Notes under the pieces: model-generated | What the model was told of the DNA's origin: nothing | Seen by the model: only the letters and a program-made list of their open reading frames with translations | Databases searched by the model: none | Position numbers and translations under genes: made by a program | In this document: positions 31,410 through 56,169 of the stretch, one piece after another | Position numbering within the stretch: the first letter of the stretch is position 1 | Layout: every line of letters begins with the position of its first letter | Assembly (NCBI GenBank): GCA_963842525.1 | Contig: CAWJGT010000034.1 | Location: forward strand, 128,001 to 192,000 | DNA from: an uncultured Holophagales bacterium | Lineage (GTDB): Bacteria > Acidobacteriota > Thermoanaerobaculia > Multivoradales > UBA5704 | Length of the DNA stretch: 64,000 bases | Direction of reading: 5' to 3'

Positions 31410-31411
31410 TC

Positions 31412-33648: not shown

Positions 33649-34053
33649 CTATTTCGACCGGGCCGCCTCGGGAGGCGACGGAACCGGTCCCCACCCGCGG
33701 GCCCCCTGCTGTTGCCGCCAAGCGGTCCCGTTCATCCAGGACGCCGAATCGACACCCAATTGCAGGATCTCGATGCCCAGGTTCCCCGCCTGCGCGACGG
33801 GGCCGCTCGGCGCGTCGTTCTTCGGGCCCAGGCCGACGAAGCTGAACGACAGGTCCACCATTGCCTGCTGCAACCGGTCGCCGGCCCGGAAGGCCGAGCG
33901 CAGCCCCGGCCCGAGCGCCTCTTCCGCGGTGCGGGTCACGGCCCCGAAGGCCTTCACCGCCCGGCGCGGAGACATCAGGTTGGTCATCTGCTCGACGCCG
34001 AACAGGGACATCGCCCACGAGAAGCTCGCCATGGAACGGGCCAATTCACGCAT
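33649..34053 (-). CDS. Small protein consisting mainly of the shared 'SFSWAM' module
   Basis: MRELARSMASFSWAMSLFGVEQM...AGDRLQQAMVDLSFS; GGGAGG RBS. Confidence 0.8.
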   Translation of the reverse strand: MRELARSMASFSWAMSLFGVEQMTNLMSPRRAVKAFGAVTRTAEEALGPGLRSAFRAGDRLQQAMVDLSFSFVGLGPKNDAPSGPVAQAGNLGIEILQLGVDSASWMNGTAWRQQQGARGWGPVPSPPEAARSK

Positions 34054-34109
34054 GGTCGTGCCTCCCTCTTTCAACGCAAGCATAATGAAACAGGCGCTGC
34101 CCGGGGGAT

Positions 34110-34898
34110 TCAAAGAGGATTCAAGAGGAGCCCGGCGTCCCGGGCGCGGACGAGGATTTCCTCTCCCAGGCGGCCGTAGGCATGGGCACCTTTCGACCAG
34201 CCCTCGTAGTGGAAGATGGTGCGGCTGTGGGCCGGCGCCTCGGCGAGGCGGACGTTGATCGGAATCTCGGTCTGGCAGACGCTCGCTCCGTAGGTCCCGC
34301 GGAGCCCCTCCACCACCTTCCCGGTCACCGCCGTGCGGCGGTCGGCCATGGTCACGAGGATGCCCAACAGCTCGGGGATCCGTTCGAGGCGCCCGCGGAC
34401 CTCCTCCAGCGCCTCGAACAGCGCCTCCAGGGCCTCGGTGTTCAGAGGCTGCGGCACGACCGGGACGAGGAAGGCGTCGGCGGCGGCCAGGGCATTGAGG
34501 GTCAGGATCGACAGCCCGGGCGGGCAGTCCACGAGGATGACGTCGTAGTGGCGGCGGATGGGAGCGAGCGCCTCCGCAAGGGCCTTCTCCGGCTCTTTCC
34601 GGCGGGCGAGCGCGACGTCGCTGCTCGCCAGGCGCAGCGAGCCCGGCAGCAGATCGATCCTCTCGACGCCGGTGTCCCAGATCGCCTGGCCGGCAGGGAC
34701 CTTGCCGTTCAGGACTTCGGCCACCGACGGCTCGGCGTCCCGCCGGTGGATGCCGAACGAGTGGGTCGCCGAGGCTTGCGGATCGAGGTCGACGACCAGC
34801 ACCTCGAAGCCGCTCTCGGCGGCGAAGAAGGCCGCCAGATTGACCGCCGTCGTCGTCTTGCCGACGCCTCCCTTGATGTTCACCAGGGCCAGGTTCAT
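34110..34898 (-). CDS. parA: ParA/Soj family ATPase (orphan)
   Basis: KGGVGKTTTAVN deviant Walker A, DLDPQASAT, VDCPP, EAPAH; no parB in the window. Confidence 0.9.
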   Translation of the reverse strand: MNLALVNIKGGVGKTTTAVNLAAFFAAESGFEVLVVDLDPQASATHSFGIHRRDAEPSVAEVLNGKVPAGQAIWDTGVERIDLLPGSLRLASSDVALARRKEPEKALAEALAPIRRHYDVILVDCPPGLSILTLNALAAADAFLVPVVPQPLNTEALEALFEALEEVRGRLERIPELLGILVTMADRRTAVTGKVVEGLRGTYGASVCQTEIPINVRLAEAPAHSRTIFHYEGWSKGAHAYGRLGEEILVRARDAGLLLNPL

Positions 34899-34921
34899 GC
34901 CATGGATCCGCTCACCGCGGC

Positions 34922-36586: not shown

Positions 36587-36599
36587 GGTCGTCTCTCCT

Positions 36600-38000
36600 C
36601 TAGAACCTGAAGGTGAAGGAAGCCAGGCCCGAGATGATCTGTTCGGAGATCGTGAACCTGCCACCGGGGACGTTTTGCTGATTCAGTGGCGGCCCCGTGG
36701 TGCGATCCCCCCTCAGGAAGGGACTGAGCAACGGCCCCGAGACCTCGTGGCGGGGCGCGTAGTAGGCGCCCAGGCTCAGCTCGATCTTGTCGGTGGCCCG
36801 CACTCCCAGCCCGAGCGTGTAGTGGTCCTTGAACGTCGGGGGAGTCCCGAGGCTGGTGAACGCCACCTCGCTACGGATCGGCGTCTCGCTGTAGTTGAAG
36901 CCGCCCCGCAGCGTGACTTTCTCCGAGACCTCATACTCCACGCCGATGGCGCCAACCAAGATGTCGGCCCAGCCGATCCCGTTCAGGCTGCGGTCCGTCT
37001 TGAAGCCTCCCGGGCCGCCCGCACCCTCGACGCTGCTGTAGTCCACCCAGCGGGCATCGAACCCAGCCCTCCATTTCCTGCCGGGATCGTAGGCGAATCC
37101 GGCCGAGACGATCTGGGGGCCATCGAGCGCATAGCTGACAACTCTGTGCTCGCCGTAGTGTTCGTTGCGGGTTTGTGCACCGGTATTCGGATCGGTTTCG
37201 TACGGCAGGGAATTGAAGGAGTTCCACTCGTAGTCGGCGAAGTCCTGCGGACTGGTGTACGAGAACCCTACGCTCCAAGCCTCGTTCAGGCGGTAGTGCA
37301 GGCCCACCTGGACGGCCAGCGCGTAGGAGGTCACCACGTTCTCGGCAGGCGCGTAGAAGCAATCGACGACGCGGCCCGACCCAGGCGTCGGCGCGGTGCA
37401 GTCCGGCACTGCCGGTGGCAGAGGAGAGATGGACAATGCACCCTGGTAGACGACGAGACTGCCGCCGAGCGAGAGCTTCGGGCTCACCTCGTAAGCCAGC
37501 GACAGAGGGATCTTCAGGATGGCCAGATTGGTCTTGACCGTGCCAAAGCCGTCCGGCTGCGGCAGGAAGATGGGGTTGCTCGGATCCTGGGGCCAGTCGG
37601 TGCGAAATCCCGCGACTGCAAGGAGGCCGAAGCCGACGGCCCAGGGGCGACCCTGTGGATGGTAGAGCAGACCGATGGCAGGTAGGACGCCCGGCTCGGT
37701 GTCTCCTTCGGTGGTGAAGGGCCCGCGCCCGAACGGTACGTCGCTTGCAAAACTCGCCGTCGCCTTCGGTCCATCCGTGAAGACCTCCACGCCGATGCCG
37801 ACCTGGTAACCGTCGAAGCAGGTCAGCAGCGCCGGATTGACGTGCAGCGTGCCGATCACCTCGACCGGCAGCGCGGTCGACACGCCTCCGAGCGAGCTGT
37901 TGATTGCGCCCACGCCATGCAGGAGGTGCCCGTTGCCGGCCCGGACCGAAACCGTCACGAGCAAGGCCGCGATAGTAAGGAGCCCAATTTTCTTGACCAC
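36600..38000 (-). CDS. OmpP1/FadL/TodX outer-membrane hydrophobic-compound transporter
   Basis: Signal peptide, G..SSLGG...NPALL hatch motif, LRGGFNYSETPI, C-terminal FTFRF. Confidence 0.85.
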   Translation of the reverse strand: MVKKIGLLTIAALLVTVSVRAGNGHLLHGVGAINSSLGGVSTALPVEVIGTLHVNPALLTCFDGYQVGIGVEVFTDGPKATASFASDVPFGRGPFTTEGDTEPGVLPAIGLLYHPQGRPWAVGFGLLAVAGFRTDWPQDPSNPIFLPQPDGFGTVKTNLAILKIPLSLAYEVSPKLSLGGSLVVYQGALSISPLPPAVPDCTAPTPGSGRVVDCFYAPAENVVTSYALAVQVGLHYRLNEAWSVGFSYTSPQDFADYEWNSFNSLPYETDPNTGAQTRNEHYGEHRVVSYALDGPQIVSAGFAYDPGRKWRAGFDARWVDYSSVEGAGGPGGFKTDRSLNGIGWADILVGAIGVEYEVSEKVTLRGGFNYSETPIRSEVAFTSLGTPPTFKDHYTLGLGVRATDKIELSLGAYYAPRHEVSGPLLSPFLRGDRTTGPPLNQQNVPGGRFTISEQIISGLASFTFRF

Positions 38001-40795: not shown

Positions 40796-42034
40796 TCAAG
40801 CCGTCACCGGGATCATCGCGTACTGCGCCTGCGGGGCTTCGGGCAGGACGCACTCTTCGTCCAAGCAGTCGTGCAGGGTCGCGTCGGTGAATCCCTTGTC
40901 CATCAGCCGCTCGAGGTGGCCGCGGTTCAGGTTCAGCAGGCCGAGCGCCCCGCCTTCGCTCAGCTCCTCGCACGGGTGATAGCGATGGATCGTCATCGGT
41001 TTGTAGGTGAGGTACCGCTTGAGGCGCGGCACGATCAGGTTCATGCCCTTGGCGAGGGACTCCAGCTCGGGGTCCGCGACCTGCTCGCCCGCCTCGATGC
41101 GCCGCAGGAGGCGGATCCCCTGGTTGATCATGGCCGCGTCCTGGATGTCGTCGTTGACCAGCGCCGCCCAGGCGATCTGCTGCAGGCGGTAGTTGGTGGC
41201 GATGGTGCTGCCGAGGGCGCTGTTGGGGATGGAGGCGACGTCCGGGTCGAGGTAGATGACGTGCAGGACCTCCGCGCCCAGGTGGATCGCCTCGCGCAGC
41301 GGGGTGTTCATCAGGACGCCTCCGTCCACGTAGGGCTCGGCCCCCACGTAGGCCGGCGGGAACACGCCGGGGATGGCGCTCGAGGCGAGGATCGCCTGGG
41401 GCCCCAGAGTCTCGGTCATGTCGCGGTTGCGGAAGTACCTCACCTCCCCCGTCGTCCAGTTCGTCGCGACGACCGAGAGCTGCTTCTCGGTGCGGCGGAT
41501 GGCCTCGAAGTTGATGCTCCCGCGGATCGCTCTCGCCCAAGGGTCGATCGAGATGAAGGTCGGGAAGTTGATCAGCCCGGTGAGCCTCTCCCCCAACGTC
41601 TCGTTGCGCGCCGTCGCCAGGTGCACCATTCGCTGGATCCCGTCCCAGGCGACGGCCGCGCTGTCCCCGGCAAACTGCAGGAACGGGTGCAAGGGGTTCG
41701 GCAGATAGGACCTGGGGTTCAGGTAATAGGTCGGGTCGAAGCGGAACCGGTAGCCGCCGTTCCGGCCCGTGACGTCGGCGGCCAGGGTCTCGAGCCAGAC
41801 CCGCTCGAGGTTGGTGATCGCCGCAGGGCCGTAGGCGTCCCACTGGGAGGCCAGAAAGGACGCGTTGAACGAGCCGATCGAGGTGCCGAGGAAGATGTCC
41901 GGATCGAGCAGTTGGCCGCGGGTCGCCACGGACTTGCCGCTGAACAGCGCCTTGAGGACGCCGACCTCGTAGGCGCCGTTGGCGCCGCCGCCCGAGAGGA
42001 CGAGCGCGACTTTTCTTCCCTGTGGATCGGTCAT
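40796..42034 (-). CDS. Patatin-like phospholipase (copy 2)
   Basis: LSGGGANGAYEVG, GTSIG nucleophile elbow, ASSAIPGVFPP, VDGG. Confidence 0.9.
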   Translation of the reverse strand: MTDPQGRKVALVLSGGGANGAYEVGVLKALFSGKSVATRGQLLDPDIFLGTSIGSFNASFLASQWDAYGPAAITNLERVWLETLAADVTGRNGGYRFRFDPTYYLNPRSYLPNPLHPFLQFAGDSAAVAWDGIQRMVHLATARNETLGERLTGLINFPTFISIDPWARAIRGSINFEAIRRTEKQLSVVATNWTTGEVRYFRNRDMTETLGPQAILASSAIPGVFPPAYVGAEPYVDGGVLMNTPLREAIHLGAEVLHVIYLDPDVASIPNSALGSTIATNYRLQQIAWAALVNDDIQDAAMINQGIRLLRRIEAGEQVADPELESLAKGMNLIVPRLKRYLTYKPMTIHRYHPCEELSEGGALGLLNLNRGHLERLMDKGFTDATLHDCLDEECVLPEAPQAQYAMIPVTA

Positions 42035-43272
42035 CGGGTTGCACCTCCAGCTCTGCCCTGGGGGGGACAGATGCAATCGGATTGATCGCAGTCGTGGTGG
42101 ACCGCGTCCTCATAGCCCTGGGCGATGAGGTTGTCGATGTTCTCCAGGCTGAAGTCGAGGAGGGTGTCAGGCGCTCCCAGGCTCGTCTTCGGCCGGTAAC
42201 GGTGGATCTCCAGCGGGAGATAGGGCGGGCCCGCGGTTGCGGCGGAGCCCTTCTCCATCTTCTGCCGCGCCCGCGCGATGGGCATGGCGCTGCGCGGGGC
42301 CCCCGGGCCGAGCACCGCCAGCTCCTCGTTCACCGTGGCGGCGGTCCGGATGTCGCCGTTGATCTGCGCCGCGAGCAGGATGGTGTAGACGCGGCTGAAG
42401 GTGTCCAGCGTGTTCGGCAGCGGCGGGAACGGGATCTCGGAGGCCAGCGGATCGACGTAGATCACGTGCAGCACCTTGGCCCCGTCACGGATCGCCGGCC
42501 TGAGCGGCGTGTTCATGAGCAACCCGCCGTCGACGCAGATCGTGTTGTCCACCTCGACCGGAGGGAAGATGCCCGGGATGGCGGCCGAGGCCAGGATGGT
42601 GTCGGTCCCCAGCCGGTCGGTGACGTCGGCCTTGCGGAACACCTTGGTCTTGCCGTTGACCCAGTCGGAGGCCACGACGGACAGCGTGCTGGCCGAGGTC
42701 CGCAGGCGGCCCAGGTCGAGCGTGTCCGCCAGCAGCTCGTCAAGCGGCGAGCGCGAGAACAGGGCGGAGAGGTTGAAGGTCTCGAGCAGGCGGATACGCA
42801 CGGGCGCCTCCGAGGTGACGAGCTGCGTCCCGTAGGCGAGCGCATAGGCGCCCCAGAAGGCCGCGTCGCGTCCCATGTCGGCGAGGAGGGCGAGCGGCTT
42901 CTGGAGGCAGCCGGGATCGAGCAGCCGGCTGGGATCGCAACGCAGCCGGTAGACGCCGTTGCCGCAGCTCTGCGCGGTATCGGCGATGCGCCGGCACCAG
43001 ATCTCCTTGAGGTGTCCGATCGTGCCCGGCCCGGCCGCGTCCGCCTGCGCCAGGAAGGCGGCGTTGTAGGCTCCCACCGAGGTGCCGGTGAAGATCCGCA
43101 CCGTGAGCGGCCGGCCGCCGGTGATGGGCGAGGCTCCCTCGAACAACGCCTTCATGACGCCGACCTCGTAGGCGCCGCGGGCTCCCCCGCCCGAGAGGAC
43201 GAGGGCGTGCCGGGCGCCGTCTCCGCCGGCGGGAGGCGCGTTCGCGGCCGGCGAAGAGGCGGTCCTGATCAT
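42031..43272 (-). CDS. Patatin-like phospholipase (copy 1)
   Basis: LSGGGARGAYEVG, GTSVG, ASAAIPGIFPP, VDGG. Confidence 0.9.
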   Translation of the reverse strand: MIRTASSPAANAPPAGGDGARHALVLSGGGARGAYEVGVMKALFEGASPITGGRPLTVRIFTGTSVGAYNAAFLAQADAAGPGTIGHLKEIWCRRIADTAQSCGNGVYRLRCDPSRLLDPGCLQKPLALLADMGRDAAFWGAYALAYGTQLVTSEAPVRIRLLETFNLSALFSRSPLDELLADTLDLGRLRTSASTLSVVASDWVNGKTKVFRKADVTDRLGTDTILASAAIPGIFPPVEVDNTICVDGGLLMNTPLRPAIRDGAKVLHVIYVDPLASEIPFPPLPNTLDTFSRVYTILLAAQINGDIRTAATVNEELAVLGPGAPRSAMPIARARQKMEKGSAATAGPPYLPLEIHRYRPKTSLGAPDTLLDFSLENIDNLIAQGYEDAVHHDCDQSDCICPPQGRAGGATR

Positions 43273-44872: not shown

Positions 44873-47800
44873 TCAAGGCAAGACGTCTTTTTGGATCGGC
44901 GGCTTGGTGTTGACGTTCGACGTGGCGCCTCCGTCGATCTGGATACCCACAAAGGAAGCGTTCCTGGCGGTGGAGATCTGGACCGTCACCGGCAGCGGGA
45001 AATCCTTTCCGTTCTTGCTCCAGATCCCATAGCCGGCGAAGGCGACGACGTCATAATCGCCTGCCCCGGCGCGGGACGTGAGCGGGTTGGCGAAGTGGAC
45101 CCAGGAGAGGCTGCGCAGCCGGAACTTGCCATTCTGGCTGTGGTTCTCGTATTCGAACGAAGCAGGCAGGCTCCCCGGGTCCGCCGGAATGTCATAGCTG
45201 TAGGAGAAGGAGTCGCCGCTGGAAGCGAGCACCTTGGTGGCGCTGCCTTTCTTCGCGAACTGCGGCGGCGCGGGATCGCCGTCCACGGCCTGGATCCAGA
45301 AGAAGGGGTCGAGCGACGAGCCCGGTCCGGCTGGAAAGCCCACCGCCAGGTTCGGCTGGGGGAAAAGGAAGCCCTCGGGATACGGGATGTGGACCTCGCC
45401 GCAAAAACGGTAGACGGTCTCGCCTCGTGGCGTCTTCTGGAAGCTCGCCGGACCGCGGAAGAGAAACGAGCTGCTCGGAGTGCGCGGCTCGACCCGCAGC
45501 AGGGCGAAGAAGACGTTCTGGCCGATGAAGCCGCGGTGGAGCTGCCCGCCGAGCACCTCGCCGGTGCGCACGTCGACCGCGCCGACGGCCAGGTCGAACG
45601 GATCGCTGACCAGGAAGACGTCGTCCAGATAGAAGGAGCGCCGCGGGAAGCGCAGGAACTCGTTGAACCCGAGCTGCCCGGTCGCGAGCTGGCCGGGGAA
45701 CCCCCCGGCGGAGAGGCCCTGCGAAATCGGTCCCGGCGGCTCCGGGGCGGGAGCCAGGAACCCGCCCGGAGGCATGCCGCTGACGTAGAACGGCACGGTG
45801 TTGCCCTCCCGCTCGCCGAACTGGACGTGCAGCCGCCCCATGAGCTGGGAGCGCCCTGTCCCGGTCCCGCCGAGGAACTCGCCAGTGAGGGTGAAATCGT
45901 CGCCGAAGCTCGTGTTGCGGGCGATGTAGGTGAATTCCCGGACCGTGTTGGTGGGGATCTCCGGCACGCCTTCCGGCGTCTCGATGGGCCCTTCCCGGGT
46001 GCTCAAAAAGATGTGCGGGTGGAGCGCCAGGCCGCGTGTCGGGATGCTCGCGAACTGCGGCATCTGGCCGGCAAGGCTGGCAAAGGGGAGCGGGAAGCGG
46101 ACCGGCTGCGCGCCGAAGACCTGTTGCAGGGGCAGGAAGGTGGTGCCGAAGAGCTCGAAATCGAGCTTGCCGTCCGCCCTCTGGGTGAACTGCGCCACGG
46201 CCGTGCCGTACTGGCCGGGAAAGCTGATGGGCACCCGCGGGAAGTTGGGGTTGACCAGCGCCAGGGCGAAGATCGCCGTATTGGCGAAGGCGAAGTTGAG
46301 GTTCGGCGTCGCGGCAGGAGGCTCGACGAGCTGGCCCGTGGTCAGGTCCAGCAACCCGGTGGAAACCATGCCGGGAAAATCCGTGACCTGCTGCTGCTTG
46401 CCCGGCAGCTTGAAGAACTGCGGCGCGGCGAGGATCCCGTCGTCGCCCTGCAGGCCGTCGAGCACCGAAAGCTCGAACTGGGTCACGTTGTTCACCGGCG
46501 GCGAGAAGCGGATGCGGACCTGCCCGCTGAGGTGGCTGTCCATCAGGGCCAGGCCGCCGAAGAGCACGCCGCCGCAGCCGCCCATCGCCGCATACCTGGG
46601 ATCCTGGCAGTCGACGGCGCGCAGGGCGTCGCCGAAATAGCTGCGCTCCTTGTTGAGCGGCAGGATTTGTTCCAGGCCGGGCGGCAGCTCGAGCGGCTTG
46701 GCGAGCGGCGGCTGGGGACACTGATCGACCGGCCGCCGGACGGCGGCGGACTTGGGCGCCACGGGGCTCGCCGCCGCTCCCCCGGTGGCGGAGGTGCCGA
46801 CCTGGGCCGGCTGGGCCGGCTGGGCCGGAGGAGGCGGCGGGAGCTGCCCGGCCGTCAGCTCAGGTCCCTCGGCGGGCTGGTAGAGGACGACCGGATCGCT
46901 CGCCGCCACCGGGCCGAGGTCGATCAGCGGGAAGGATGCGCCATAGACCTGGTTGAGGAGCTGCAGCGCCTCGTTGGCGATCAGGGCCTGTCCGGTCCGG
47001 CCCGGGTAGTAGCCGTTCAGCGTGTAGAGCCCGCCGAGGAAGCCCGCGGTCAGCCGCCGCGAGCCGGTGCCGGTGCCGACGCCCTCGGCGCGGACGCGGC
47101 GGAAGAGAGCGTGGAGGTCGCAGACGAACGCGCCTTGTTCCCGCGCCAGGTTGGCGAGCTCGGCGTTGATCTCGCGGATGCGGGCGCTGATCCGGCCGGC
47201 GGTCTCGCCGCTCAGCACGCTGCCTTGCGGCAGCGGACCGAGGCCCTGCGAGAGAAACTGGTAGCCGATCTCCACCAGCCCGCGGACGGTGATCAGGTCG
47301 TCCTCGTGCAGGCCGTAGACCTTGAGCAGGATCGCGGGCTCCAGCTTGACGACCTGCGCGGCCGCCGCGATGGAGGAGACGCAGGCGGTGTCCAGGGGAT
47401 CGGGGACGTTCATCACCAGGACCGCGGCGCCCGCCTCGCGCAGCGGCTTGAGCAGCCGGAGGTAGTCGGCGCGGCAGCGCGCGGCATCCGGCAGCCGGCG
47501 GGTGTCGCCGGTGACGACGGCCTCGATGGCCTCCGTGTAACCGAGGGCGACGAGCGCCAGGGTGGGCCTGCGCTGCAGTGCCCGCTGAAGCTGGGTGGGT
47601 AGCTCGCCTGCGGCGCCCTCCAGCATCTCCGGCATGCCCAGGATGAGGTTGGCGGCCGTCTGCCGGGCGTCGTCGCGGTGCACCAGCGGCGGTTGCGGAC
47701 GAAGCTTGAGCGCGTCGGCGATCCGGAAGCCCGGCACCGACAGGTTGCCCACCGCGGCCGGCGGTGGCCACGGCTCGAGGACCGTCGTCTGCATCAGCCC

Positions 47801-48463
47801 CGGAATCACGACCGGCAGCGGCGGGAAGCCCGGCAGATTGCCGATGCCCGGCTGCTGGAGGAGCGGCTGCACGAGATCGGTCTGCATCTGGCAGGCCATC
47901 TGCGCCGGGAAGCTCCAGCGCTGGAAGTCGTCCCAGAGCGCGAAGTCTCCGGCGCCGGCGGCGAGCCCCTCGCCGAGCACGACGAAGACGCCCCGGTCGA
48001 GCCGGCCGGCATCGACAGGCGTGCGCGGCGCGAGCGGCGCCGCGAGGGCCGCGGAGGAGGACATGGACACAGTGGAGCCCGGGGCGGCGGACTGCGGCGT
48101 CCCGGTCGCTCCCATCCCGGGCGGTCCGGCCGCGCCGCCTCCGGCCGCGCCCATCCCGGGCGCGGCGCCGAACATCATGTCGACGAGCCCCCTCTGCATG
48201 CGGTCCCCGGCCTGGAAGAGCGGGCGTAGCCCGTCGCCCAACTGCTCCCCGGTCGCCTGCGCGACCGCGTCGAGCGAGGCGACGGCCTTGTCGGGCGCGA
48301 GCGCGTTGCTCAGGCTCTTGACGCCGAACAGCGACATGGCCCAGGAGAACCCGAGCGTCGATTTCATCAGCTCGCGCAGAGCGCCGACCGGCCCCATGGC
48401 AGATCCGGGGCCCTGCCCGGGCGCGGGCTTGCCGCCCGGCCGGTCGCCTCCCTGTCCGTTCAT
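44873..48463 (-). CDS. 1196-aa multidomain protein: SFSWAM module + degenerate SGNH/GDSL domain + unknown beta-rich domains
   Basis: ATG overlaps upstream TGA; LRELMKSTLGFSWAMSLFG; VVLGEGLAAG, GNLSVPG, LNGYYPGRTGQALIANE. Confidence 0.8.
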   Translation of the reverse strand: MNGQGGDRPGGKPAPGQGPGSAMGPVGALRELMKSTLGFSWAMSLFGVKSLSNALAPDKAVASLDAVAQATGEQLGDGLRPLFQAGDRMQRGLVDMMFGAAPGMGAAGGGAAGPPGMGATGTPQSAAPGSTVSMSSSAALAAPLAPRTPVDAGRLDRGVFVVLGEGLAAGAGDFALWDDFQRWSFPAQMACQMQTDLVQPLLQQPGIGNLPGFPPLPVVIPGLMQTTVLEPWPPPAAVGNLSVPGFRIADALKLRPQPPLVHRDDARQTAANLILGMPEMLEGAAGELPTQLQRALQRRPTLALVALGYTEAIEAVVTGDTRRLPDAARCRADYLRLLKPLREAGAAVLVMNVPDPLDTACVSSIAAAAQVVKLEPAILLKVYGLHEDDLITVRGLVEIGYQFLSQGLGPLPQGSVLSGETAGRISARIREINAELANLAREQGAFVCDLHALFRRVRAEGVGTGTGSRRLTAGFLGGLYTLNGYYPGRTGQALIANEALQLLNQVYGASFPLIDLGPVAASDPVVLYQPAEGPELTAGQLPPPPPAQPAQPAQVGTSATGGAAASPVAPKSAAVRRPVDQCPQPPLAKPLELPPGLEQILPLNKERSYFGDALRAVDCQDPRYAAMGGCGGVLFGGLALMDSHLSGQVRIRFSPPVNNVTQFELSVLDGLQGDDGILAAPQFFKLPGKQQQVTDFPGMVSTGLLDLTTGQLVEPPAATPNLNFAFANTAIFALALVNPNFPRVPISFPGQYGTAVAQFTQRADGKLDFELFGTTFLPLQQVFGAQPVRFPLPFASLAGQMPQFASIPTRGLALHPHIFLSTREGPIETPEGVPEIPTNTVREFTYIARNTSFGDDFTLTGEFLGGTGTGRSQLMGRLHVQFGEREGNTVPFYVSGMPPGGFLAPAPEPPGPISQGLSAGGFPGQLATGQLGFNEFLRFPRRSFYLDDVFLVSDPFDLAVGAVDVRTGEVLGGQLHRGFIGQNVFFALLRVEPRTPSSSFLFRGPASFQKTPRGETVYRFCGEVHIPYPEGFLFPQPNLAVGFPAGPGSSLDPFFWIQAVDGDPAPPQFAKKGSATKVLASSGDSFSYSYDIPADPGSLPASFEYENHSQNGKFRLRSLSWVHFANPLTSRAGAGDYDVVAFAGYGIWSKNGKDFPLPVTVQISTARNASFVGIQIDGGATSNVNTKPPIQKDVLP

Positions 48464-49764
48464 GCGAAGCTCCTCCCGTGAAGGGCCCATTGCGGCAGCG
48501 CCTCGGTGTCGAGCCAGTCGGGGACCTGGCGCCAGGTCTCGAGCGAGCCGATCAGGGTCTGAAAGTGCTGCTGGAAGTGGGTGACGAGAAAGTCCCGTTC
48601 CAACTGTTTGAGGGAGATGCAGAAGTCCCGCGCCGCCAGGCCGCCGGTCAACAGGTTGGCCGCCGAGATGGAGAGCGTCACGGGGTCGAAGGTCAGGCCG
48701 CTGCCGGGCAGCCTGTCGAAGGCCCGTTTGACCGGCGCCAGGAGGTAGCGGGAGGTCCCCAGGGTCAGCAGGCTCGCCACCTGGTAGCCCCATTCGACGG
48801 GGTTGAGCGACACGTTGACGATCTGGGTGGGGCGGTTGACCACGAAGATCGCCTCCGCCTTGATCTTCCCCGCCGTGTCGACGGACCACTGGATGATCTC
48901 GATGGCGGCTTCGAACTCGCCGGGGCCGTAGGCGGGGCCAAAGCTGGGCGGCTTGGGGTTCTTGATGAAGGCGTAGCCGAAGCCGTAACGGCCCAGCAGG
49001 TCGGGCGTGGGCTCCTCCTCGTTGACCACGAAGTCGCGGTTCATGATGAGGTAGCTGCCCTCCTTGAGCGGCACGCTCAAGGAGGGGGTGCCGGGCCCGA
49101 ACGGCTGGATGGGCAGGTTGAAGTTGAAGATGTAGACGCGCGGCAGGATCCATTCGTATTTCGGCCCGATCTCGCGCAGGTCGACGATGGCGGAACGGTC
49201 GGTCTCCGGGAAGACGCCGATCCGGTCGCCGGCCGCCAGCTGGTAGAAGATCTGCCGGAAGCCGAAGCCCATGAGCTGGGGGTCCTCCTCCGGGCACCAG
49301 CTCAGGGGGCGCAGGAAGTCGGGGATGGGCTCGCGGTCGCTCGGCGGGATGAACGCCTCGGGCAGCCGGAAGCTGCTGACGCGCATGAAATAGCGCAGCA
49401 CGAACTCGCGGAGCTGATCGCGCATCCACTGCGCCGCGATGCCCTTGCTCGTGCCCGGCGACTTGGGCTGGTCGTAGAACATGGCCTGGTAGTTGCCCAT
49501 GATGGGCATCTGCCGGCCCCCCACCTCCGCGGTGTCGAAGAAGCCGAAGCTCTCCTCGTCATGCCGGTCGAATGTGGTCGTGAGCGGAAACCTCTGGGCG
49601 AAGCTCTTCGTGGCCCAGGCCTGGTCCCACCAGCGCTTGAGGTCGAGCCCCCGCCGCAGATAGGTCCCGGCGCTGGCCAGCGCCGCATCCTGCTCGCCGG
49701 TGGTCCCGAAGTCCGGCGAGGACCTCTCGGCGCCACCACCGCAGCAGCACGGGGAGCCGGTCAT
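48460..49764 (-). CDS. Hypothetical protein (434 aa) with N-terminal CCC
   Basis: ATGA overlaps at both ends; MTGSPCCCGGG; globular aromatic-rich body of unknown family. Confidence 0.8.
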   Translation of the reverse strand: MTGSPCCCGGGAERSSPDFGTTGEQDAALASAGTYLRRGLDLKRWWDQAWATKSFAQRFPLTTTFDRHDEESFGFFDTAEVGGRQMPIMGNYQAMFYDQPKSPGTSKGIAAQWMRDQLREFVLRYFMRVSSFRLPEAFIPPSDREPIPDFLRPLSWCPEEDPQLMGFGFRQIFYQLAAGDRIGVFPETDRSAIVDLREIGPKYEWILPRVYIFNFNLPIQPFGPGTPSLSVPLKEGSYLIMNRDFVVNEEEPTPDLLGRYGFGYAFIKNPKPPSFGPAYGPGEFEAAIEIIQWSVDTAGKIKAEAIFVVNRPTQIVNVSLNPVEWGYQVASLLTLGTSRYLLAPVKRAFDRLPGSGLTFDPVTLSISAANLLTGGLAARDFCISLKQLERDFLVTHFQQHFQTLIGSLETWRQVPDWLDTEALPQWALHGRSFA

Positions 49765-50666
49765 CGCGGCCTCCTGCGCGGCGGACCGGGGGGACGGTTG
49801 CCACGCCGCGGCCCGACGGGCGGTGCTCCTGCACCGGAGCCGCCCGGCGAGGGTGGCGCCTCCGCAACCGGCGGAGCCGCCTTGCGCGGAGGTCTCGGCC
49901 GGCGTGGGGGTACCGTGACGGCCGGAGTAGGCTCGGCAGTCGGCGCGACCACCGCGGGACCCGGGGCGGGCTCGTAGGCCGGCGGCGGTGCGATTGCCGC
50001 GACCGGCCCTCGGGCCGCAGACGGTTGTGGAGCAGGCGACAAGAGGAGCGGACGGCGGAGCCCGAGCAGAGCGTTCCGGATGCCCTCCAGGGAGTCGCTC
50101 TTGCCGCGGCCGCAGCCGCTTGAAGGCGTGCGCGGCCAACGCTTGAGCACCCCGTACGAGACCCGCAGGTACTTCTTGTCGGCATGCGTGATCTCGTTGC
50201 GGCGGTCCTGCGCCACGGCGGCCTGGTACTCGGGCGACTGCAGATACATGGCCACGATCCAGGTGGCGAAGCCCGCGGCGGTCATCGGGGTGGTCACCAG
50301 GATCACTCCCCCGGTGAGGACTTTTTCGTGGCACCGCCGGATGGAGACGAGGGCGTACTTCACGAGCTGGATCGCGTCGTCGTCGAGGTCTCGCGGCGAG
50401 AGGGTCCGGCTCTCCTGCCGCTCCACGACCACGACCGTGGTGCTGCTGGCCGCGGGCTGCTGCCAGGCAGCGGGCTGCCGGGGGGCGGGCACCGGGAAGG
50501 CGCCGGCGCTCGCCCCGGCTCCTGGCGCGGGAGGCAGCGCCGGCTGCGCCGGCGGTGACATGGCATTCCACGGAGAGCCCTGGTTGCCGGGCCGCGGACC
50601 GCCCAGCATAGTCAACATCTGACCCATCGTGGCATCGAAGAGCCGGCCGAACAGAGTCCAGATCAT
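49761..50666 (-). CDS. Hypothetical protein: amphipathic N-terminus, P/A linker, 'KKYLRV' domain, Pro-rich tail
   Basis: ATGA overlaps; LVKYALVSIRRC...FATWIVAMYLQ...DKKYLRVSYGVLKRWPR is paralogous to 51970..52581. Confidence 0.75.
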   Translation of the reverse strand: MIWTLFGRLFDATMGQMLTMLGGPRPGNQGSPWNAMSPPAQPALPPAPGAGASAGAFPVPAPRQPAAWQQPAASSTTVVVVERQESRTLSPRDLDDDAIQLVKYALVSIRRCHEKVLTGGVILVTTPMTAAGFATWIVAMYLQSPEYQAAVAQDRRNEITHADKKYLRVSYGVLKRWPRTPSSGCGRGKSDSLEGIRNALLGLRRPLLLSPAPQPSAARGPVAAIAPPPAYEPAPGPAVVAPTAEPTPAVTVPPRRPRPPRKAAPPVAEAPPSPGGSGAGAPPVGPRRGNRPPGPPRRRPR

Positions 50667-51814
50667 GGCCTGGACACCCCCTTTCCCGGCGGGCAGCGAA
50701 ATAGCGGAGCCATCCCGCCGCTCTGCCGGAGTCGCGGATAGGTGTGCTGGAGCGCCTCCTCGCAAGGTGCCACGACGCGATCGCGCCAGAGCGCGGCCAG
50801 AGCACGGCCGTCCGGGCGATGCGCGAGGAAGGCGTCGAGATGGAAATCGAGCCCTACGATGTCATACCAGACGAGCACGGCCGAGGCGACGCCGTTCGAG
50901 AAAGCCTCGGCCGAGCCGATTTCTCCGTCATGGCGCCGCAGCACGCCGGCGAGGATCGCCGGGTGCCGGAGGTTGACCAGGGTGAGCGCCCAGGCCAGGC
51001 CCGCGGTGGCGTTGCGCCGGCCTGGCTCGTCGGGAGGCTCCCGCCAGGCCTTCTCGAACGCCCGCCCCAGGGCGCCGCTGTGAGGCACTGCATGGGTGGG
51101 TGCGAAATAGAGACCGCGGCCGGCGCCGTGCCAGAGATGCTCGGCGAGAACCGGATCGATCGACCCCAGCAGCTCGCCGAGCCCGGAGAGGAGATAGGGA
51201 TGGAGATTCCTGGCCACCAGCCCCAGCGCCTCGACCGCGATGCAGCCGTACCCGGGTCCGGCGTTCTCCTCCCACGACGCATGCCAGCGGGCGAGGCCCT
51301 CCGGGTTGCGTGCGCCGTCCGCCGCGAGCAGGCGGTCGGCGAAGCACAGGCCGGCTCCGGTGTGGAGCGGCAGGACGGCGCCCAGGGGCAGACCTTCCAG
51401 CCTGAGGTCCGCCAGGAGACGGCCTGGAGCCGCTGCCGCAGCCCAGGCGCTCCGGGCACGAGCGTAGCCGAGCCCTTCCACCGTCCACACCGCACGGTAG
51501 GGACCGAGCGCCGCGGCCCGCAGGACCTGCTCGGCCAACGGCCTCTCGCCGGCCGCCAGGTCCAGCCGTGCGTCCTGAAAGTGCTCGAACGCTTCGAGCT
51601 TGTTGGCGAGCTCGAGCCACTCGAGCCCCACCTCTCCCGGCAGCGCCGTCTGTGCCACCTTCGCCGACTCCTGCAGCAGCCGCAGGGCCGCTCCCAGAGT
51701 CTGCCGAGACGCGGCCTCCCCCAGCACCCCACCAAGCTGGCGGGCGCTGTGCACCATCAGCGAAGAGGACAGGTCCATCATCGGTTCGCCGGCCTCACCG
51801 AACGTACGGAGCAC
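50663..51814 (-). CDS. Helical hypothetical protein, paralog 3 of the 'WHGAGR' family (weakly DUF1702-like)
   Basis: WTVEGLGY, LHTGAGL, EALGLV, LWHGAGRGLYF, GLAWALTLVN, FSNGVAS. Confidence 0.75.
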   Translation of the reverse strand: MLRTFGEAGEPMMDLSSSLMVHSARQLGGVLGEAASRQTLGAALRLLQESAKVAQTALPGEVGLEWLELANKLEAFEHFQDARLDLAAGERPLAEQVLRAAALGPYRAVWTVEGLGYARARSAWAAAAAPGRLLADLRLEGLPLGAVLPLHTGAGLCFADRLLAADGARNPEGLARWHASWEENAGPGYGCIAVEALGLVARNLHPYLLSGLGELLGSIDPVLAEHLWHGAGRGLYFAPTHAVPHSGALGRAFEKAWREPPDEPGRRNATAGLAWALTLVNLRHPAILAGVLRRHDGEIGSAEAFSNGVASAVLVWYDIVGLDFHLDAFLAHRPDGRALAALWRDRVVAPCEEALQHTYPRLRQSGGMAPLFRCPPGKGVSRP

Positions 51815-51969: not shown

Positions 51970-52581
51970 TCAGCTGACCGCAGTCTCTTCGCGCCGCGAC
52001 CCGGAGAGCTCCCGAATCGCCCTTTCGATCCCGCGCAGGACGTCGACCTGCCGGTCGTCGCAGCAGTCCTTGTCCGGGCGCGGCCACGACTCCAGGACGT
52101 GGTGGTAGACCCGGAGATACTTCTTCTCCTCATGGGGAATCGGCTCGCCGTTCGGGTCCTGCAAGTAGAGCGCGACGACCCAGGTGGCGAAGGACTCGGG
52201 GCTCATGTCGTCCGAGTAGATGATCTCGCCCTTGGTGATGATCCTCTCGGCGCAACGCTTGATCGAGACGATCGTGTACTCCACCAGCTTGACTTCGTGG
52301 TGATCGTTGTCGCAGCAGCAATCCGACATTTTGCGTTCCTCCTTGGCTTGCTTGGTGGCGCCGACCCCCTGCGCCCGTTGGTGGTCCGTATACGTTCCAG
52401 CCCCCGGGAATCCCGTACCCGGAGCATTCGGAGCATTCGGAGCATTGCCAGCCCAGATCGCGCTCTGAGCACTGTGCCCGCCCGGTTGCTGCAGACCCCG
52501 CATCGCCGTGGCGAGCAGGTTGATGCAGCCGGTGAGCATCGAGACCGGCAACCACATCATCTGGCCGAACAACTGCATCAT
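51970..52581 (-). CDS. Hypothetical protein with 'KKYLRV' domain and Cys clusters; possible internal start at 52329
   Basis: GAGGAGG RBS at 52581 and AAGGAGG RBS before MSDCCCD; NAP x3 linker. Confidence 0.75.
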   Translation of the reverse strand: MMQLFGQMMWLPVSMLTGCINLLATAMRGLQQPGGHSAQSAIWAGNAPNAPNAPGTGFPGAGTYTDHQRAQGVGATKQAKEERKMSDCCCDNDHHEVKLVEYTIVSIKRCAERIITKGEIIYSDDMSPESFATWVVALYLQDPNGEPIPHEEKKYLRVYHHVLESWPRPDKDCCDDRQVDVLRGIERAIRELSGSRREETAVS

Positions 52582-52593: not shown

Positions 52594-54219
52594 TCAGCCG
52601 GCGCGGCGCGCAACCCAGAGCAAAAAGCCCCCGAACACCAGGAAGAGGGCTGCGGCGATTTCGTCTCCCCGGCCGGCGAGCGCTCCCGACTCGGCGAGCC
52701 GGCGCAGCACGAGGGCCGCAGCCCCCAGCACCATCAGCAGGGAGGCGACGACCAGAGACGAGCTCCCCTGCGGGCGCGGCCGGCGGCCAGGCTCCGCGAC
52801 GACGGACCGGTCACTCCCTTCGGCGGCCAGGGTGAGCAGCTCGTCGAGCTTCTGCGGCAGCACCGACAGCAGGGCGGCGTAGCGGTCGAGCTGGCCGCCC
52901 CAGTGGTCGGGACGGATCGCGTCCCGCACCTGCGAGAAGCTCGTCAGCACCCGGACCTCCTGGAGGCCTTCGAGGAGCGCATCCATTTCGGGAGCCAGGC
53001 CCCGGGCGGCGGCGGCGGTCGCGAAAAGGCCGCGGTAGAAGACCAGCAGCTGGTAGCGCGGCCGGTAGCCGCAGGAGCGCGCGACGCGCGCATAGACGAA
53101 GAGGTGCTCGGCCAGGCTTTCGCCGCCGGCGCTCCAGGCGCCGTCGCGAAAGGGGACGATCTGCCGTAGCTGCAACCGGAGCTCCTCCTCGGAGGCGGCG
53201 GTCCCCTCCGCGAGCATTTCGGGCAGCAGGCGCGTGCAGGCCTCGTCCGGGTCGCGCGCCGCCACGGCGATCACGAACCCCAGCAGATCGGCCTGCGCCG
53301 CCGCCGGCGGCCGCACGAAAGCGGCGCCCTGCCAGCCGATCCGCCCGTCCGGCAGCACCCGGACGTCCTCGGGGCCCAGCTCGACGGGAAAGGCGCGGCC
53401 CAGGAGGGCCTGTCGCAGCCAGACGGAGCAGAGATGGCGCACGATCTCCCGCCGGTCCGGCCCCCCCAGGCTCCGCGCTCCCACCCGGCCGATCTCGCCG
53501 AGGGACACGCCGCCCAGGTCCGCGGTGGTGAGCAGCCGCGAGGTCGTCAGATCGGGGAACACTGACGGCACGGCCAGGCGCCCGAAGCCTGCCGCATCGC
53601 CAGCCAGCAGCTCCAGGGACCGGGCCACGGACCGGAAGCTCGTCTGCTCCTGGAGGTCCTGCCGGAAGCCGGCGACCGCCTCTTCGGCGGCCAGGGCGCT
53701 CCAGCCGTTGGCGGCCAGGGCCTCGGCGACGCGGGAGAGCATCTCGAGATCGAGCGCGAACGCCTCGTCCTCCTCGGTCCGGACCAGACGCAGGATCACG
53801 GGCTCGCCGCTCGCCAGCCGTCCGCGGTGGACCTGCACCAGCAGGCGGGACTCGTAGGGAGTTTCCTCCAGTGCGGCGAAGGCCTCGGCAGCGGGAGCGC
53901 CGAGCTCGGCCGCGATCCGTTCGCGCACCGCGCCGATCGGCAGCGGCGCCGCCCGGCTGCGGATCGCCGCCAGCGCCAGCCCCTCGCTCGCGGTCACGAG
54001 GTCGATCCGCGAGGCCAGGTAGGCCCCGAAGGCCGTGAAGACCGGCCCCAGCTCCTCGAGGGCCCCCTGCAGACGGTGGACGAGGGACGCGTCGGCGGGC
54101 CCGGCCCCGGGGCGCAACGGGCGGGGGCGGCGCAGCAGCTCCCAGCGGGCGAGGCAGCTCTCGACCTCGCGCCTGCGTTGCTGCGCCGCCGGCCGGCCGG
54201 CTCGCCGCGGCTGCATCAC
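52594..54219 (-). CDS. ABC1/UbiB-family pseudokinase
   Basis: ALEELGPVFTAFGAYLASRIDLV (ABC1 N-terminus); VILRLVR, PVELGPED and WQGA replace AVKVQR, HADLHPAN and DFG; two C-terminal TMs. Confidence 0.75.
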   Translation of the reverse strand: MMQPRRAGRPAAQQRRREVESCLARWELLRRPRPLRPGAGPADASLVHRLQGALEELGPVFTAFGAYLASRIDLVTASEGLALAAIRSRAAPLPIGAVRERIAAELGAPAAEAFAALEETPYESRLLVQVHRGRLASGEPVILRLVRTEEDEAFALDLEMLSRVAEALAANGWSALAAEEAVAGFRQDLQEQTSFRSVARSLELLAGDAAGFGRLAVPSVFPDLTTSRLLTTADLGGVSLGEIGRVGARSLGGPDRREIVRHLCSVWLRQALLGRAFPVELGPEDVRVLPDGRIGWQGAAFVRPPAAAQADLLGFVIAVAARDPDEACTRLLPEMLAEGTAASEEELRLQLRQIVPFRDGAWSAGGESLAEHLFVYARVARSCGYRPRYQLLVFYRGLFATAAAARGLAPEMDALLEGLQEVRVLTSFSQVRDAIRPDHWGGQLDRYAALLSVLPQKLDELLTLAAEGSDRSVVAEPGRRPRPQGSSSLVVASLLMVLGAAALVLRRLAESGALAGRGDEIAAALFLVFGGFLLWVARRAG

Positions 54220-55583
54220 GCCGCGCCCCTCCCGCCCCAGCCCTCGCGCTGGAGCTGCGCCACGAACGCCGGCAGGTCGCGGTACTCGAAGACCTCGCCC
54301 AGCCGGGCGCTCGCCTTGATCACCGGATAGTACACGTCGAGCGCGGCCGTGAACGGCCCGCGCACCAGGTGGTCCCAGAGCTCCACCAGCCGGCGGTTCG
54401 ACGGCTCCGGCTCGTACCGGCGGAAGGCTTCGAGGAGGGGGGCGTCCGGCGTCGTGTCGAAGCGCATGACCGTCGAGGAGGCCACGCCGTTGGCGAAGGC
54501 GCCGTCGCGCGCCAGCTCGTCGCCATAGGGCTCGATCAGCAGCTTGGCGAGGACGTTCGGATCGCGCTGGGAGACCAGCGTGTAGCCCCAGGCCGCGCCG
54601 GCCACCGCGCTCAGGCGGGCCTGTTCGTCCGGGGCTTCCTGCCCCGCCTGTTCGAAGAGCAACCCGTCCGAGCCCGGCAGGAAGTTGATCGCGCCGAAAT
54701 AGATCGCCCGGCCCGCGCCGTGCCAGAAGTAGCCGCGGAACTCGGGAGCGACCTCCTGCACCGCCCGGTCGATGGACTGCGTCAGCTCGGGGTGGAAGGT
54801 GCGGGTCACCAGGCCGAGCGACTCGACGGCGCAGCCGAGGTATCCCGGACGCGAGTTGTCCACGTCGAGCTCGAAGATCTGGCGCACCGTGTCGCGGAGC
54901 TGCTCGAACGAGGTCTGGTTGCTAGCGTTGCTCAGGAGGTGCTGCGCGATGGACAGACCGATGCCCGCATGGAGCATGGTCAGGCTCTTGTCCGGCAGGG
55001 CGCTCGTCCGCTCGTCGTTCAGGATGCGGTGCGGCGTCATGCCGTGATTCCAGAAGCTGTCGCCGTAGTCGTGCCCCAGGCCCTCCACCGCCCAGAGAGC
55101 GCGGAACGGGCCGAGGGCGTAGGACCGGTCGAGCAGCTCGTAGAGGGGGAATGGCAGAGTCGTGGGCACCCCGATCAGCTTGGCCACGTCGAGGACGAGG
55201 CAGAAGACCTCGCCCTTGAAGCGGATCTCCTCCAGGGCGAGCCCCCCGTTGCCCTCCGCGACCAGGCGGGCCGCCACGGCCGACCGCTGCGCCGCCGCCA
55301 TGGAGGCGTTCAGCCAGAGCGTCGGGTCCAACATCTGCGGACTGAGAAGGCTGGGCCCCATCGTCACCAGGGCGTTCTGCAGGCATTGGCCGACCTGGTA
55401 GATCTGCTTCAGCCAGCTCTCCTCGCCGAGCTGGCCCGACATCGCGCCGGTGACCGCACCGAGGCCTCCGGTGGCTTTCTGGCGCTCCCCGGCCGACGAC
55501 GACAGCAGGCGGAGGAGCTGCTGTGTGCCGTACAGCGGTGCCCCCCAGGAGAGGCTGACCGCCGATTTGGTCAGGTCGCGCAT
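54216..55583 (-). CDS. 'WHGAGR' family paralog 2 with N-terminal SFSWAM-like module
   Basis: MRDLTKSAVSLSWGAPLYG; WAVEGLGH, LHAGIGL, ESLGLV, FWHGAGRAIYF, FANGVAS. Confidence 0.8.
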   Translation of the reverse strand: MRDLTKSAVSLSWGAPLYGTQQLLRLLSSSAGERQKATGGLGAVTGAMSGQLGEESWLKQIYQVGQCLQNALVTMGPSLLSPQMLDPTLWLNASMAAAQRSAVAARLVAEGNGGLALEEIRFKGEVFCLVLDVAKLIGVPTTLPFPLYELLDRSYALGPFRALWAVEGLGHDYGDSFWNHGMTPHRILNDERTSALPDKSLTMLHAGIGLSIAQHLLSNASNQTSFEQLRDTVRQIFELDVDNSRPGYLGCAVESLGLVTRTFHPELTQSIDRAVQEVAPEFRGYFWHGAGRAIYFGAINFLPGSDGLLFEQAGQEAPDEQARLSAVAGAAWGYTLVSQRDPNVLAKLLIEPYGDELARDGAFANGVASSTVMRFDTTPDAPLLEAFRRYEPEPSNRRLVELWDHLVRGPFTAALDVYYPVIKASARLGEVFEYRDLPAFVAQLQREGWGGRGAA

Positions 55584-55599
55584 GGCCGTTTCCTGCCGC

Positions 55600-56169
55600 T
55601 CAAATCCTCGGCGCGGCCGAGGTCCAGCCCGCGGGCACGTCGATCGGGCTACCGGCCGTGCCGCCGAGGGCGGCGTCCGTCGCGCGGGCGGTCGCGTCCG
55701 CGGCACGGTAGGCCACGTCCGTCATGCCGGCGGCGGTCTGGTAGGCGGCCTCGTCCATGACGGCCGCGGTGCGGTAGGCCGCATCTCCGGCGCTCGCGGC
55801 GGCGCGGTCGCCCTGGCCCATGCTCCCCGGCATGACCTGCCCCATGCCGCGCTCCATGCCCCGCATCGAGCGCTGCATCATCTCCGAGCTCATCCGCATC
55901 CAGGAGGTCGGATCGAACGCCTGGACGTTGAAGACGCTGAACATCAGGTCCGTCACGCCGCGCTGGATCTGGTCGCCGGCGTCGAACAGACCGCGCAGGG
56001 TCGGGCCCAGCTCCTTCCTCATCGTGCCGGTCACGGTGTCGAATCCCTCGGCCGCCTTGTCGAAGGGGCGGCTCATGTCCTGCGGCATCGACAGGTTGAG
56101 CATCTGCTTCAGGCCGTAGAGCGGCATCGCCCAGGAGAAACTCAGCATCGACTTGGTCAACTCACGCAT
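55600..56169 (-). CDS. Small SFSWAM-module protein with Ala-rich 11-mer repeats (phasin/perilipin-like by pattern)
   Basis: MRELTKSMLSFSWAMPLYG...AGDQIQRGVTDLMFS; AGDAAYRTAAV/MDEAAYQTAAG/MTDVAYRAADA. Confidence 0.8.
   Translation of the reverse strand: MRELTKSMLSFSWAMPLYGLKQMLNLSMPQDMSRPFDKAAEGFDTVTGTMRKELGPTLRGLFDAGDQIQRGVTDLMFSVFNVQAFDPTSWMRMSSEMMQRSMRGMERGMGQVMPGSMGQGDRAAASAGDAAYRTAAVMDEAAYQTAAGMTDVAYRAADATARATDAALGGTAGSPIDVPAGWTSAAPRI

Follow-up and report, generated by a model that had tools for sequence, protein, structure and literature searches.

A recurrent N-terminal helical module in an ABC1-centred gene cluster of the Acidobacteriota

The encapsulation peptides of bacterial microcompartments (BMC) and the cargo-loading peptides of encapsulins are short helical elements of about 10-20 residues (about 18 in BMC proteins), weakly conserved, which sit at one end of unrelated enzymes of one gene cluster, are joined to them by a flexible linker and need shell genes. 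Phasins and other lipid-body coats are small helical proteins with amphipathic helices and a tie to lipid metabolism, while LXG, PE/PPE and WXG100-type proteins place a conserved helical N-terminal domain on many C-terminal bodies, with small standalone helical paralogues nearby. Here we analyse an N-terminal helical module of about 75 residues that shares features with each of these systems. The module is carried by four proteins encoded in a 64,000-nucleotide stretch of DNA from an uncultured Holophagales bacterium of the Acidobacteriota, hereafter the window (contig CAWJGT010000034.1 of assembly GCA_963842525.1, positions 128,001 to 192,000 of the forward strand), within a gene cluster centred on two proteins of the ABC1/UbiB family.

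Few kinase-like families are as poorly understood as the UbiB/ABC1 proteins, whose bacterial partners outside quinone synthesis are essentially unknown. UbiB/COQ8 acts on coenzyme Q, and the plastoglobule ABC1 kinases and the accessory lipid-binding proteins of coenzyme Q handling provide a natural comparison. The START protein COQ10 also acts on this isoprenoid lipid (PMC13525633). Like the UbiB/COQ8 and COQ10 system, which is concerned with the handling of hydrophobic lipids at a membrane, the cluster described here combines an ABC1/UbiB protein with a predicted START-fold binder and small helical accessory proteins. It differs in pairing a kinase with a pseudokinase, in its two patatins and module-tagged hydrolases, and in containing no quinone biosynthesis genes; nothing supports a quinone as the ligand of the cluster. 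The literature searched yielded no paper on this cluster, and the terms 'acidobacter' and 'patatin' are absent from the accessible part of the 2026 review of bacterial START proteins cited above (PMC13525633).

The analysis defines an autonomous, previously unnamed N-terminal domain family of about 75 residues, and identifies the two ABC1 genes as the only invariant neighbours of the module across lineages. The reading that we tentatively favour is that the module acts as a three-helix docking handle, bringing lipid-active enzymes to a membrane-anchored ABC1 kinase pair. If the handle does dock on this pair, it would represent the first defined client-recruitment domain for the UbiB/ABC1 family, and could be used as a tag to direct other proteins there.

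A family of N-terminal modules

The module genes lie in an extended series of genes on the minus strand, in a genome of 65-72% G+C. A preliminary description had placed four copies of the module in the window, standing alone twice and fused to unrelated bodies twice. Both points are borne out, with all four copies on the minus strand and beginning at 34053, 48379, 55583 and 56169. In pairwise comparison with the first copy, the others are 31-47% identical over about 75 residues, and the four-copy alignment contains 14 invariant columns. The proteins carrying the module, and the relatives of one of the fused bodies, are as follows.

55600..56169, minus strand: standalone module protein, 189 aa; module at residues 1-77 (55939-56169), followed by a tail rich in A, G and T
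54216..55583, minus strand: module-famA fusion, 455 aa; module at 55338-55583, followed by an all-alpha body of about 330 aa, here named famA
44873..48463, minus strand: module-SGNH-like protein, 1196 aa; a G/P-rich lead of 28 aa, the module at 48149-48379 and a G/A/P linker
33649..34053, minus strand: standalone module protein, 134 aa; module at 33823-34053, and GWGPVP 12 residues before the C-terminus
57862..59091, minus strand: famA paralogue, 409 aa, with a truncated module (last helix only)
50663..51814, minus strand: famA paralogue, 383 aa, 34% identical to the 455-aa protein, with no recognisable module

The gene for the 189-aa protein, which had no match in Pfam, NCBIfam, PADLOC or PHROGs, lies directly downstream of an ABC1 kinase gene, and that for the 134-aa protein between a ParA-like gene and the gene for a 420-aa protein of no known family (unk420). 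Translation of the 1196-aa protein probably begins with the ATG at 48463, which follows the ribosome-binding site GGGAGGAG and places the module from residue 29 onwards. Its linker leads into an SGNH/GDSL-like region, with a weak match to Lipase_GDSL_2 (E 0.0014, under the curated cut-off), and then into a C-terminal part of about 700 aa that has no assigned family. The 409-aa protein keeps only the last helix of the module, since the BLASTP alignment with the 455-aa paralogue pairs its residue 10 with residue 58 of the latter (48% identity, E 1e-122). This supports the earlier suspicion that it starts with the last part of the module only; its upstream open frame leaves room for at most 29 extra codons, and the module profile gave no significant match to this protein alone (E 0.047).

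A hidden Markov model (HMM) built from the four window copies was searched against the 121,887 open reading frames (ORFs) of at least 40 aa in the genome, which spans 9.95 Mb and is 96.4% complete. The search returned six copies, four in the window and two on a second contig (C2), with E-values of at most 1.2e-26, and the next match had an E-value of 0.3. An independent profile of 46 public sequences, from which the window's own copies had been left out, retrieved the same six copies (E 6.7e-42 to 4.7e-22) from these 121,887 ORFs, followed by a match at 0.66. The six-copy match is far beyond chance.

An exhaustive profile search of 1.84 billion representative sequences identified 845 representatives at E ≤ 1e-3, mostly from the Acidobacteriota, of which 533 reach E ≤ 1e-10. 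The position of the module is strictly N-terminal: it spans from residue 1 in 135 of the 150 best matches and lies within the first 22 residues in 149 of them, and 124 of the 150 are proteins of 100-199 aa. Family members are named 'hypothetical protein' in the databases, and the Atlas returned only unnamed Acidobacteriota clusters. The module proteins matched no model in Pfam (including a scan of 18 public members at E ≤ 0.01), NCBIfam, PADLOC or PHROGs, and a sequence search of the PDB with the module profile gave a best E-value of 0.032, to the designed protein ThreeFoil, which was taken as chance. The profile search and listing of fusion partners that the preliminary description had called for thus uncovered a large family with three recurring bodies, which does not map to any known domain.

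Among 36 longer family members, half (18) are of a type of about 1120-1180 aa resembling the 1196-aa protein of the window. A further six are alpha/beta hydrolases (PF00561/PF12697), named haloalkane dehalogenase by their sources, five are famA fusions, five are standalone forms of about 240 aa and two are of other kinds. Single fusions to Abhydrolase_1 and to fasciclin occur among the best 150 matches, and some loci encode extra fusion forms with a beta-rich middle domain ahead of the hydrolase; no similarity was detected by BLASTP between unk420 and the middle domain of one such module-hydrolase fusion. The module is hence reused on a small, recurring set of bodies, most of them hydrolases.

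Alignment of 50 sequences outlined 13 invariant or near-invariant positions (M1, R2, K6, S7, S12, W13, G19, Q22, P29, G65, D66, Q69 and D74), which apart from M1 and W13 are polar, Gly or Pro, and which are distributed around the full circumference of helix 1 and also along helix 3. The tails and linkers behind the module are rich in Gly (16.8%), Ala (15.1%) and Pro (10.2%). A GWGP[MVLI](P) motif is present in the tails of 80 of the 150 best members, nearly always 5-20 residues from the C-terminus and sometimes twice; GWGPMP is a new C-terminal linear motif. Module genes bearing it often precede the gene for unk420, and among the module proteins of the window's genome only the 134-aa protein carries it. 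Whatever the partner of the module may be, the analysis reveals a new unannotated domain family (845 representative clusters) together with a new linear motif.

Cysteine motifs of the CxC to CxxxC type were detected in the tails of 24 of 142 short members. These motifs, and the variable, G/S/C-containing nature of the standalone tails, might suggest that the module is a leader of about 75 aa for ribosomally synthesized and post-translationally modified peptides (RiPPs), of the NHLP/Nif11-like kind, followed by a variable and sometimes Cys-containing core. We consider this scarcely plausible: no leader family of NCBIfam or Pfam matched the module, the cluster encodes no maturation enzyme or peptidase-transporter, and the same domain heads enzymes of 450-1200 aa.

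An AlphaFold2 (AF2) model of the 455-aa protein, generated from 40 aligned sequences, predicted three helices for the module (residues 2-26, 31-51 and 57-79) with pLDDT values of 42-69, and an all-alpha famA body (residues 95-450) with pLDDT above 90. In this model the module is helical but is neither confidently folded nor packed on the body, and the lack of confident packing fits a tag or docking role. In a VIA fold search with the whole 455-aa model, the matches were confined to the module and were of a generic three-helix kind (Z ≤ 5.7). The famA body had no Foldseek match at E ≤ 1e-3, with weak ARM-like rows only, and a PDB profile search of famA returned none.

The preliminary description had proposed that the helices of the module are amphipathic, which holds strongly for helix 3, moderately for helix 2 and barely for helix 1. 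The maximal hydrophobic moment of helix 3 ranges from 0.54 to 0.70 in the six copies, with a family mean of 0.61 against 0.36 for shuffled sequences, and the corresponding values are 0.44 against 0.30 for helix 2 and 0.35 against 0.31 for helix 1. Helix 1 is nonetheless the most hydrophobic part of the module (mean H 0.18), yet its maximum mean Kyte-Doolittle value over 18 residues is 0.5-0.9, far under the level of a membrane span.

These properties bear on an explanation already raised in the preliminary description, and which remains a live, if somewhat unlikely, rival: that the module itself anchors to the membrane or to a lipid-body surface through its amphipathic helices, in the manner of a phasin, perilipin or apolipoprotein, and so tethers enzymes to the surface of their substrate with no need for a protein receptor. 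The strong moment of helix 3, the hydrophobicity of helix 1 and the low confidence of the predicted fold of the module alone are all in line with it, as are the lipase and esterase nature of the fused bodies, the patatins and START-like protein encoded nearby and the presence in the window's genome of a gene for WS/DGAT, a neutral-lipid synthase family. Conservation, however, is high and falls mostly on polar, Gly or Pro positions, which is unusual for lipid-coating helices, and helix 1 is barely amphipathic and too weakly hydrophobic to span a membrane. Furthermore, WS/DGAT was found in only three of seven module-bearing genomes.

The phasin and microcompartment analogies of the preliminary description also fail at the level of the genome. 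PhaC_N (PF07167) was not found in the 96.4%-complete genome nor in the window, and the phasin families Phasin and Phasin_2 had no match in a Pfam scan of the four module proteins and 18 public members at E ≤ 0.01. The BMC shell domain (PF00936) had no match in the window's genome, although it was detected in the control genomes of E. coli and Synechococcus, and neither did the Linocin_M18 encapsulin (PF04454), other encapsulin families not having been searched. In contrast to BMC and encapsulin peptides, moreover, the module has about 75 residues and three helices, is strongly conserved and has abundant standalone forms. What stands of the address-tag proposal is an autonomous, reused N-terminal module on flexible G/A/P-rich linkers, and recruitment to the adjacent ABC1 kinase pair is more likely than recruitment to a phasin-coated granule or a shell.

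Conservation of the ABC1-centred cluster

Two genes of the window encode proteins of the ABC1 family.

56210..57865, minus strand: ABC1/UbiB-family kinase, 551 aa (PF03109, E 5.9e-54, 183.2 bits, cut-off 22.9)
52594..54219, minus strand: ABC1-family pseudokinase-like protein, 541 aa (PF03109, E 1.2e-21, 77.4 bits, cut-off 22.9)

The KxGQ motif, the beta3 Lys (in VAVKVQRP), the HxD...N motif and the DFG motif are the catalytic signature of ABC1/UbiB proteins. Each of the 16 proteins of the 551-aa type carries all of them (KxGQ, VAVKVQRP, HADLHPAN and DFG). By contrast, none of the 18 proteins of the 541-aa type retains the Lys or Gln of KxGQ, the His of HxD or DFG, and four keep the beta3 Lys. 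Their sequences thus point to a conserved kinase/pseudokinase pair, with putative orthologues in loci L002 to L023. The C-terminal hydrophobic region of the 551-aa kinase, read by eye, probably forms two membrane helices.

The six-sequence module alignment was used to locate loci in one genome per species, and six-frame ORFs of the 25 loci obtained were searched with the window proteins. The loci belong to Thermoanaerobaculia (14), unclassified Acidobacteriota (5), Holophagales (2), Blastocatellia (1) and Nitrospinota (1), the remaining two coming from one unclassified contig. The conserved order begins with two LuxR-type regulators, followed by the ABC1 kinase of the 551-aa type, a standalone module and often a module-famA fusion. 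It continues with the ABC1 protein of the 541-aa type, the protein family famB, one to three unk420 genes, the protein family famC, two patatins and either a module-hydrolase or a giant module protein. One or both ABC1 genes were matched in 19 of the 25 public loci. Of the 15 public loci whose kinase gene is complete, all but one (L012) have a module gene that starts at most about 40 nt after it, making 14 in total. In addition, a sample of 301 genomes from the phylum, with only 14 candidates scored per genome, contained the module in seven genomes, and in all seven a module gene lies beside an ABC1 gene.

The number of module genes per genome is relevant to a further rival. Modules of several proteins could bundle together into homo- or hetero-oligomers, with the standalone forms as stoichiometric fillers or adaptors, and generate an assembly with no separate receptor. 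This explanation is likewise live, though we judge it distinctly unlikely. It is consistent with the presence of several module genes per genome (six in that of the window, two to four per public locus), with standalone forms that always accompany fused ones, with the amphipathic character of helices 2 and 3, and with the abundance of small residues in helix 1, which would be compatible with tight helix packing. Against it, genomes G005 and G180 of the phylum sample yielded a single match each, again among 14 scored candidates.

The composition of the cluster bears also on the possibility that the module is a non-classical export or sorting signal, by which an undescribed translocation route would export the hydrolases, along with the fasciclin protein, from the cytoplasm. 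The strictly N-terminal position of the module would fit such a role, as would the one fusion to fasciclin, a domain usually found outside the cytoplasm, and the secreted or outer-membrane genes located near the cluster in the window (DUF4331 twice, and FadL). DUF4331 and FadL are not conserved in the cluster, however, and the conserved cluster contains no secretion machinery. The module does not seem to have a hydrophobic core of signal-peptide strength, with the 18-residue Kyte-Doolittle maxima of 0.5-0.9 given above, and no twin-arginine (RR) motif is visible by eye in the module alignment. Abundant standalone proteins with conserved C-terminal motifs would also make little sense as bare signals, and an export role thus appears very unlikely. 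The layout is the same as that of LXG, PE/PPE and WXG100 proteins, but the module has no Pfam match to these families, genes for type VII secretion did not appear in the cluster, the phylum is a different one and the bodies are lipid hydrolases rather than toxins.

The remaining conserved members of the cluster are encoded in the window as follows.

59191-59931 and 59901-60578, minus strand: two LuxR/NarL-type regulators upstream of the cluster (GerE and Response_reg for 59901-60578)
51970..52581, minus strand: famB, 203 aa, downstream of the pseudokinase
49761..50666, minus strand: second famB-like protein; the likely ATG at 50666, inferred from the translation, overlaps the stop codon of the upstream gene
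48460..49770, minus strand: famC, 436 aa, predicted START/Bet v 1-like helix-grip protein
40796-42076 and 42031-43272, minus strand: two patatin-like phospholipases (PF01734, E 1.5e-34 and 4.9e-30)
32380..33642, minus strand: unk420, 420 aa, a conserved partner downstream of standalone module genes

The AF2 model of famC, built from 15 sequences, has a mean pLDDT of 71.9 (medium confidence) and presents a START/Bet v 1 fold with large insertions. VIA searches with this model returned Z-scores of 10.5 to StAR (3p0l_C, 192 residues aligned, rmsd 4.3) and to MLN64 (1em2, 205 residues aligned). The alignments leave little of the START target uncovered, and the 50 rows listed are without exception START, Bet v 1, PYL or cyclase folds. 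Foldseek gave an E-value of 2e-3, and neither Pfam nor NCBIfam returned a sequence match. On the basis of the model, famC is a predicted binder of hydrophobic ligands. A separate lead, which pointed to famC as an SPP1-type phage portal (Atlas feature score 0.93, with only 121-129 of 256 features shared), was rejected because PHROGs returned no match, no portal was present among 50 BFVD rows and the PDB matches were consistently to START proteins; the sole BFVD rows with a probability above 0.5 include viral START proteins.

The famB proteins open with a hydrophobic helix (MMxxFGQMLxLP), which is followed by a disordered linker, a patch rich in Cys (CCCDNDHH in the window) and a conserved C-terminal domain of about 100 aa, and neither Pfam, NCBIfam nor a PDB profile search assigned them to a known family or structure. 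The module profile was not significant against the 203-aa famB protein or the 383-aa famA paralogue. For unk420, of which other genomes carry as many as three paralogues in tandem (loci L007, L008 and L019), no family match was obtained and the best PDB profile hit had an E-value of 0.8. Its consensus contains two glycine-rich motifs of the G-x-G-x-(F/L)-x-G type, including GTGxFAGAxG, which may recall barrels of the allene-oxide-cyclase or dirigent type. Matches to one of the LuxR-type regulators (LuxR225) were found in seven loci (L002, L008, L010, L011, L013, L014 and L021).

The genome of the window carries a second, diverged cluster core on contig C2 (positions 1-10947, 10.9 kb, corresponding to locus L001), with famC, famB, famA, both ABC1 genes and two module genes. 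The standalone module of C2 is 73% identical to that of the window, and the module-famA gene, like the two ABC1 genes, is fragmented over several frames. This copy could be a decayed duplicate, a related strain binned with the genome (contamination 3.4%) or the result of assembly errors.

A putative docking handle for the ABC1 pair

The strict N-terminal position of the module, its flexible linkers, its reuse on several enzymes and its standalone, adaptor-like forms all fit a docking or address domain. A specific protein interface is suggested by the fact that conservation falls on polar residues around helix 1 and along helix 3. The ABC1 kinase/pseudokinase pair would be the most likely receptor, being the only invariant neighbours of the module across lineages. 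A lipid theme, in turn, is suggested by the START-like fold of famC, by the two patatins and by the presence of the module on SGNH-like and alpha/beta-hydrolase bodies.

The favoured reading thus builds on features that were observed, namely the domain family, the N-terminal position, the fusion partners and the synteny. It further supposes docking by the module, with the ABC1 pair as its receptor and lipids as the substrates. The cluster core would comprise the membrane-anchored ABC1/UbiB kinase, the ABC1 pseudokinase, the START-like lipid-binding protein and the two patatin phospholipases. Flexible linkers would tie the handle to lipid-active or lipid-associated bodies (famA, the SGNH-like giant protein and the haloalkane-dehalogenase-like alpha/beta hydrolases), while other handles would sit on disordered tails with short motifs such as GWGPMP and CxxC. 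Through the handle, the proteins of the cluster would come together around the kinase/pseudokinase pair, at the cytoplasmic side of the membrane, to form a lipid extraction and remodelling assembly.

Several observations weigh against this proposal. Gene adjacency is the sole argument linking the module to the ABC1 proteins, and locus L012 is a case in which the two ABC1 genes adjoin each other without an intervening module gene. The predicted fold of the module is of low confidence, with only generic three-helix look-alikes (Z ≤ 5.7), and the strongly amphipathic helix 3 fits direct binding to lipids or membranes equally well. Furthermore, the fusion to fasciclin does not sit easily with a location at the cytoplasmic side of the membrane, and to our knowledge UbiB-family proteins are not established as scaffolds.

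A broader proposal, which is speculative and on balance improbable, is that the module addresses proteins to a lipid-handling assembly of bacteria that has not been described before. A UbiB-type kinase/pseudokinase hub would here recruit hydrolases, a START-like carrier and adaptors via one three-helix domain, and would parallel in prokaryotes the plastoglobule or the coenzyme Q 'synthome', while the GWGPMP motif of the standalone adaptors would hook a further partner, possibly unk420. Irrespective of the mechanism, the genes define a coherent and undescribed ABC1-centred cluster in the Acidobacteriota, a dominant but poorly studied soil phylum. They also provide a compact, conserved test bed for the family, with an active/pseudo ABC1 pair, a START-like carrier, two patatins and enzymes bearing one recognisable handle.

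Other genes of the window

Directly upstream of the gene for the 134-aa module protein lies a gene that is not a conserved member of the cluster, and which was found beside it in only one other, distant locus (L027, 17654-18508).

34110..34901, minus strand: ParA/MinD-like ATPase (AAA_31, E 2.7e-47)

The genes encoding a GMC oxidoreductase, FadL and DUF4331 (twice) are likewise not conserved parts of the cluster. Searches of the cluster proteins against PADLOC returned generic kinase, phospholipase and ParA similarities only, and no defence system. Among sequencing runs, no RNA data set was listed as a match, and one soil DNA run contained a fraction of 0.08 of the sampled words.

The gene for a succinate dehydrogenase/fumarate reductase flavoprotein (29591-32153, minus strand) appears to be split over two overlapping frames. 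The frame at 30435-32153 covers positions 1-289 of the FAD_binding_2 profile, and that at 29591-30478 covers positions 300-414 and the C-terminal domain; the split is a frameshift or an assembly error. Elsewhere in the window, a 1009-aa protein (18338-21367, minus strand) carries DUF4062 and a NACHT NTPase together with an FGE-sulfatase domain at its C-terminus, an unusual STAND architecture, and an IS110-family transposase is encoded near it, at 14599-15816.

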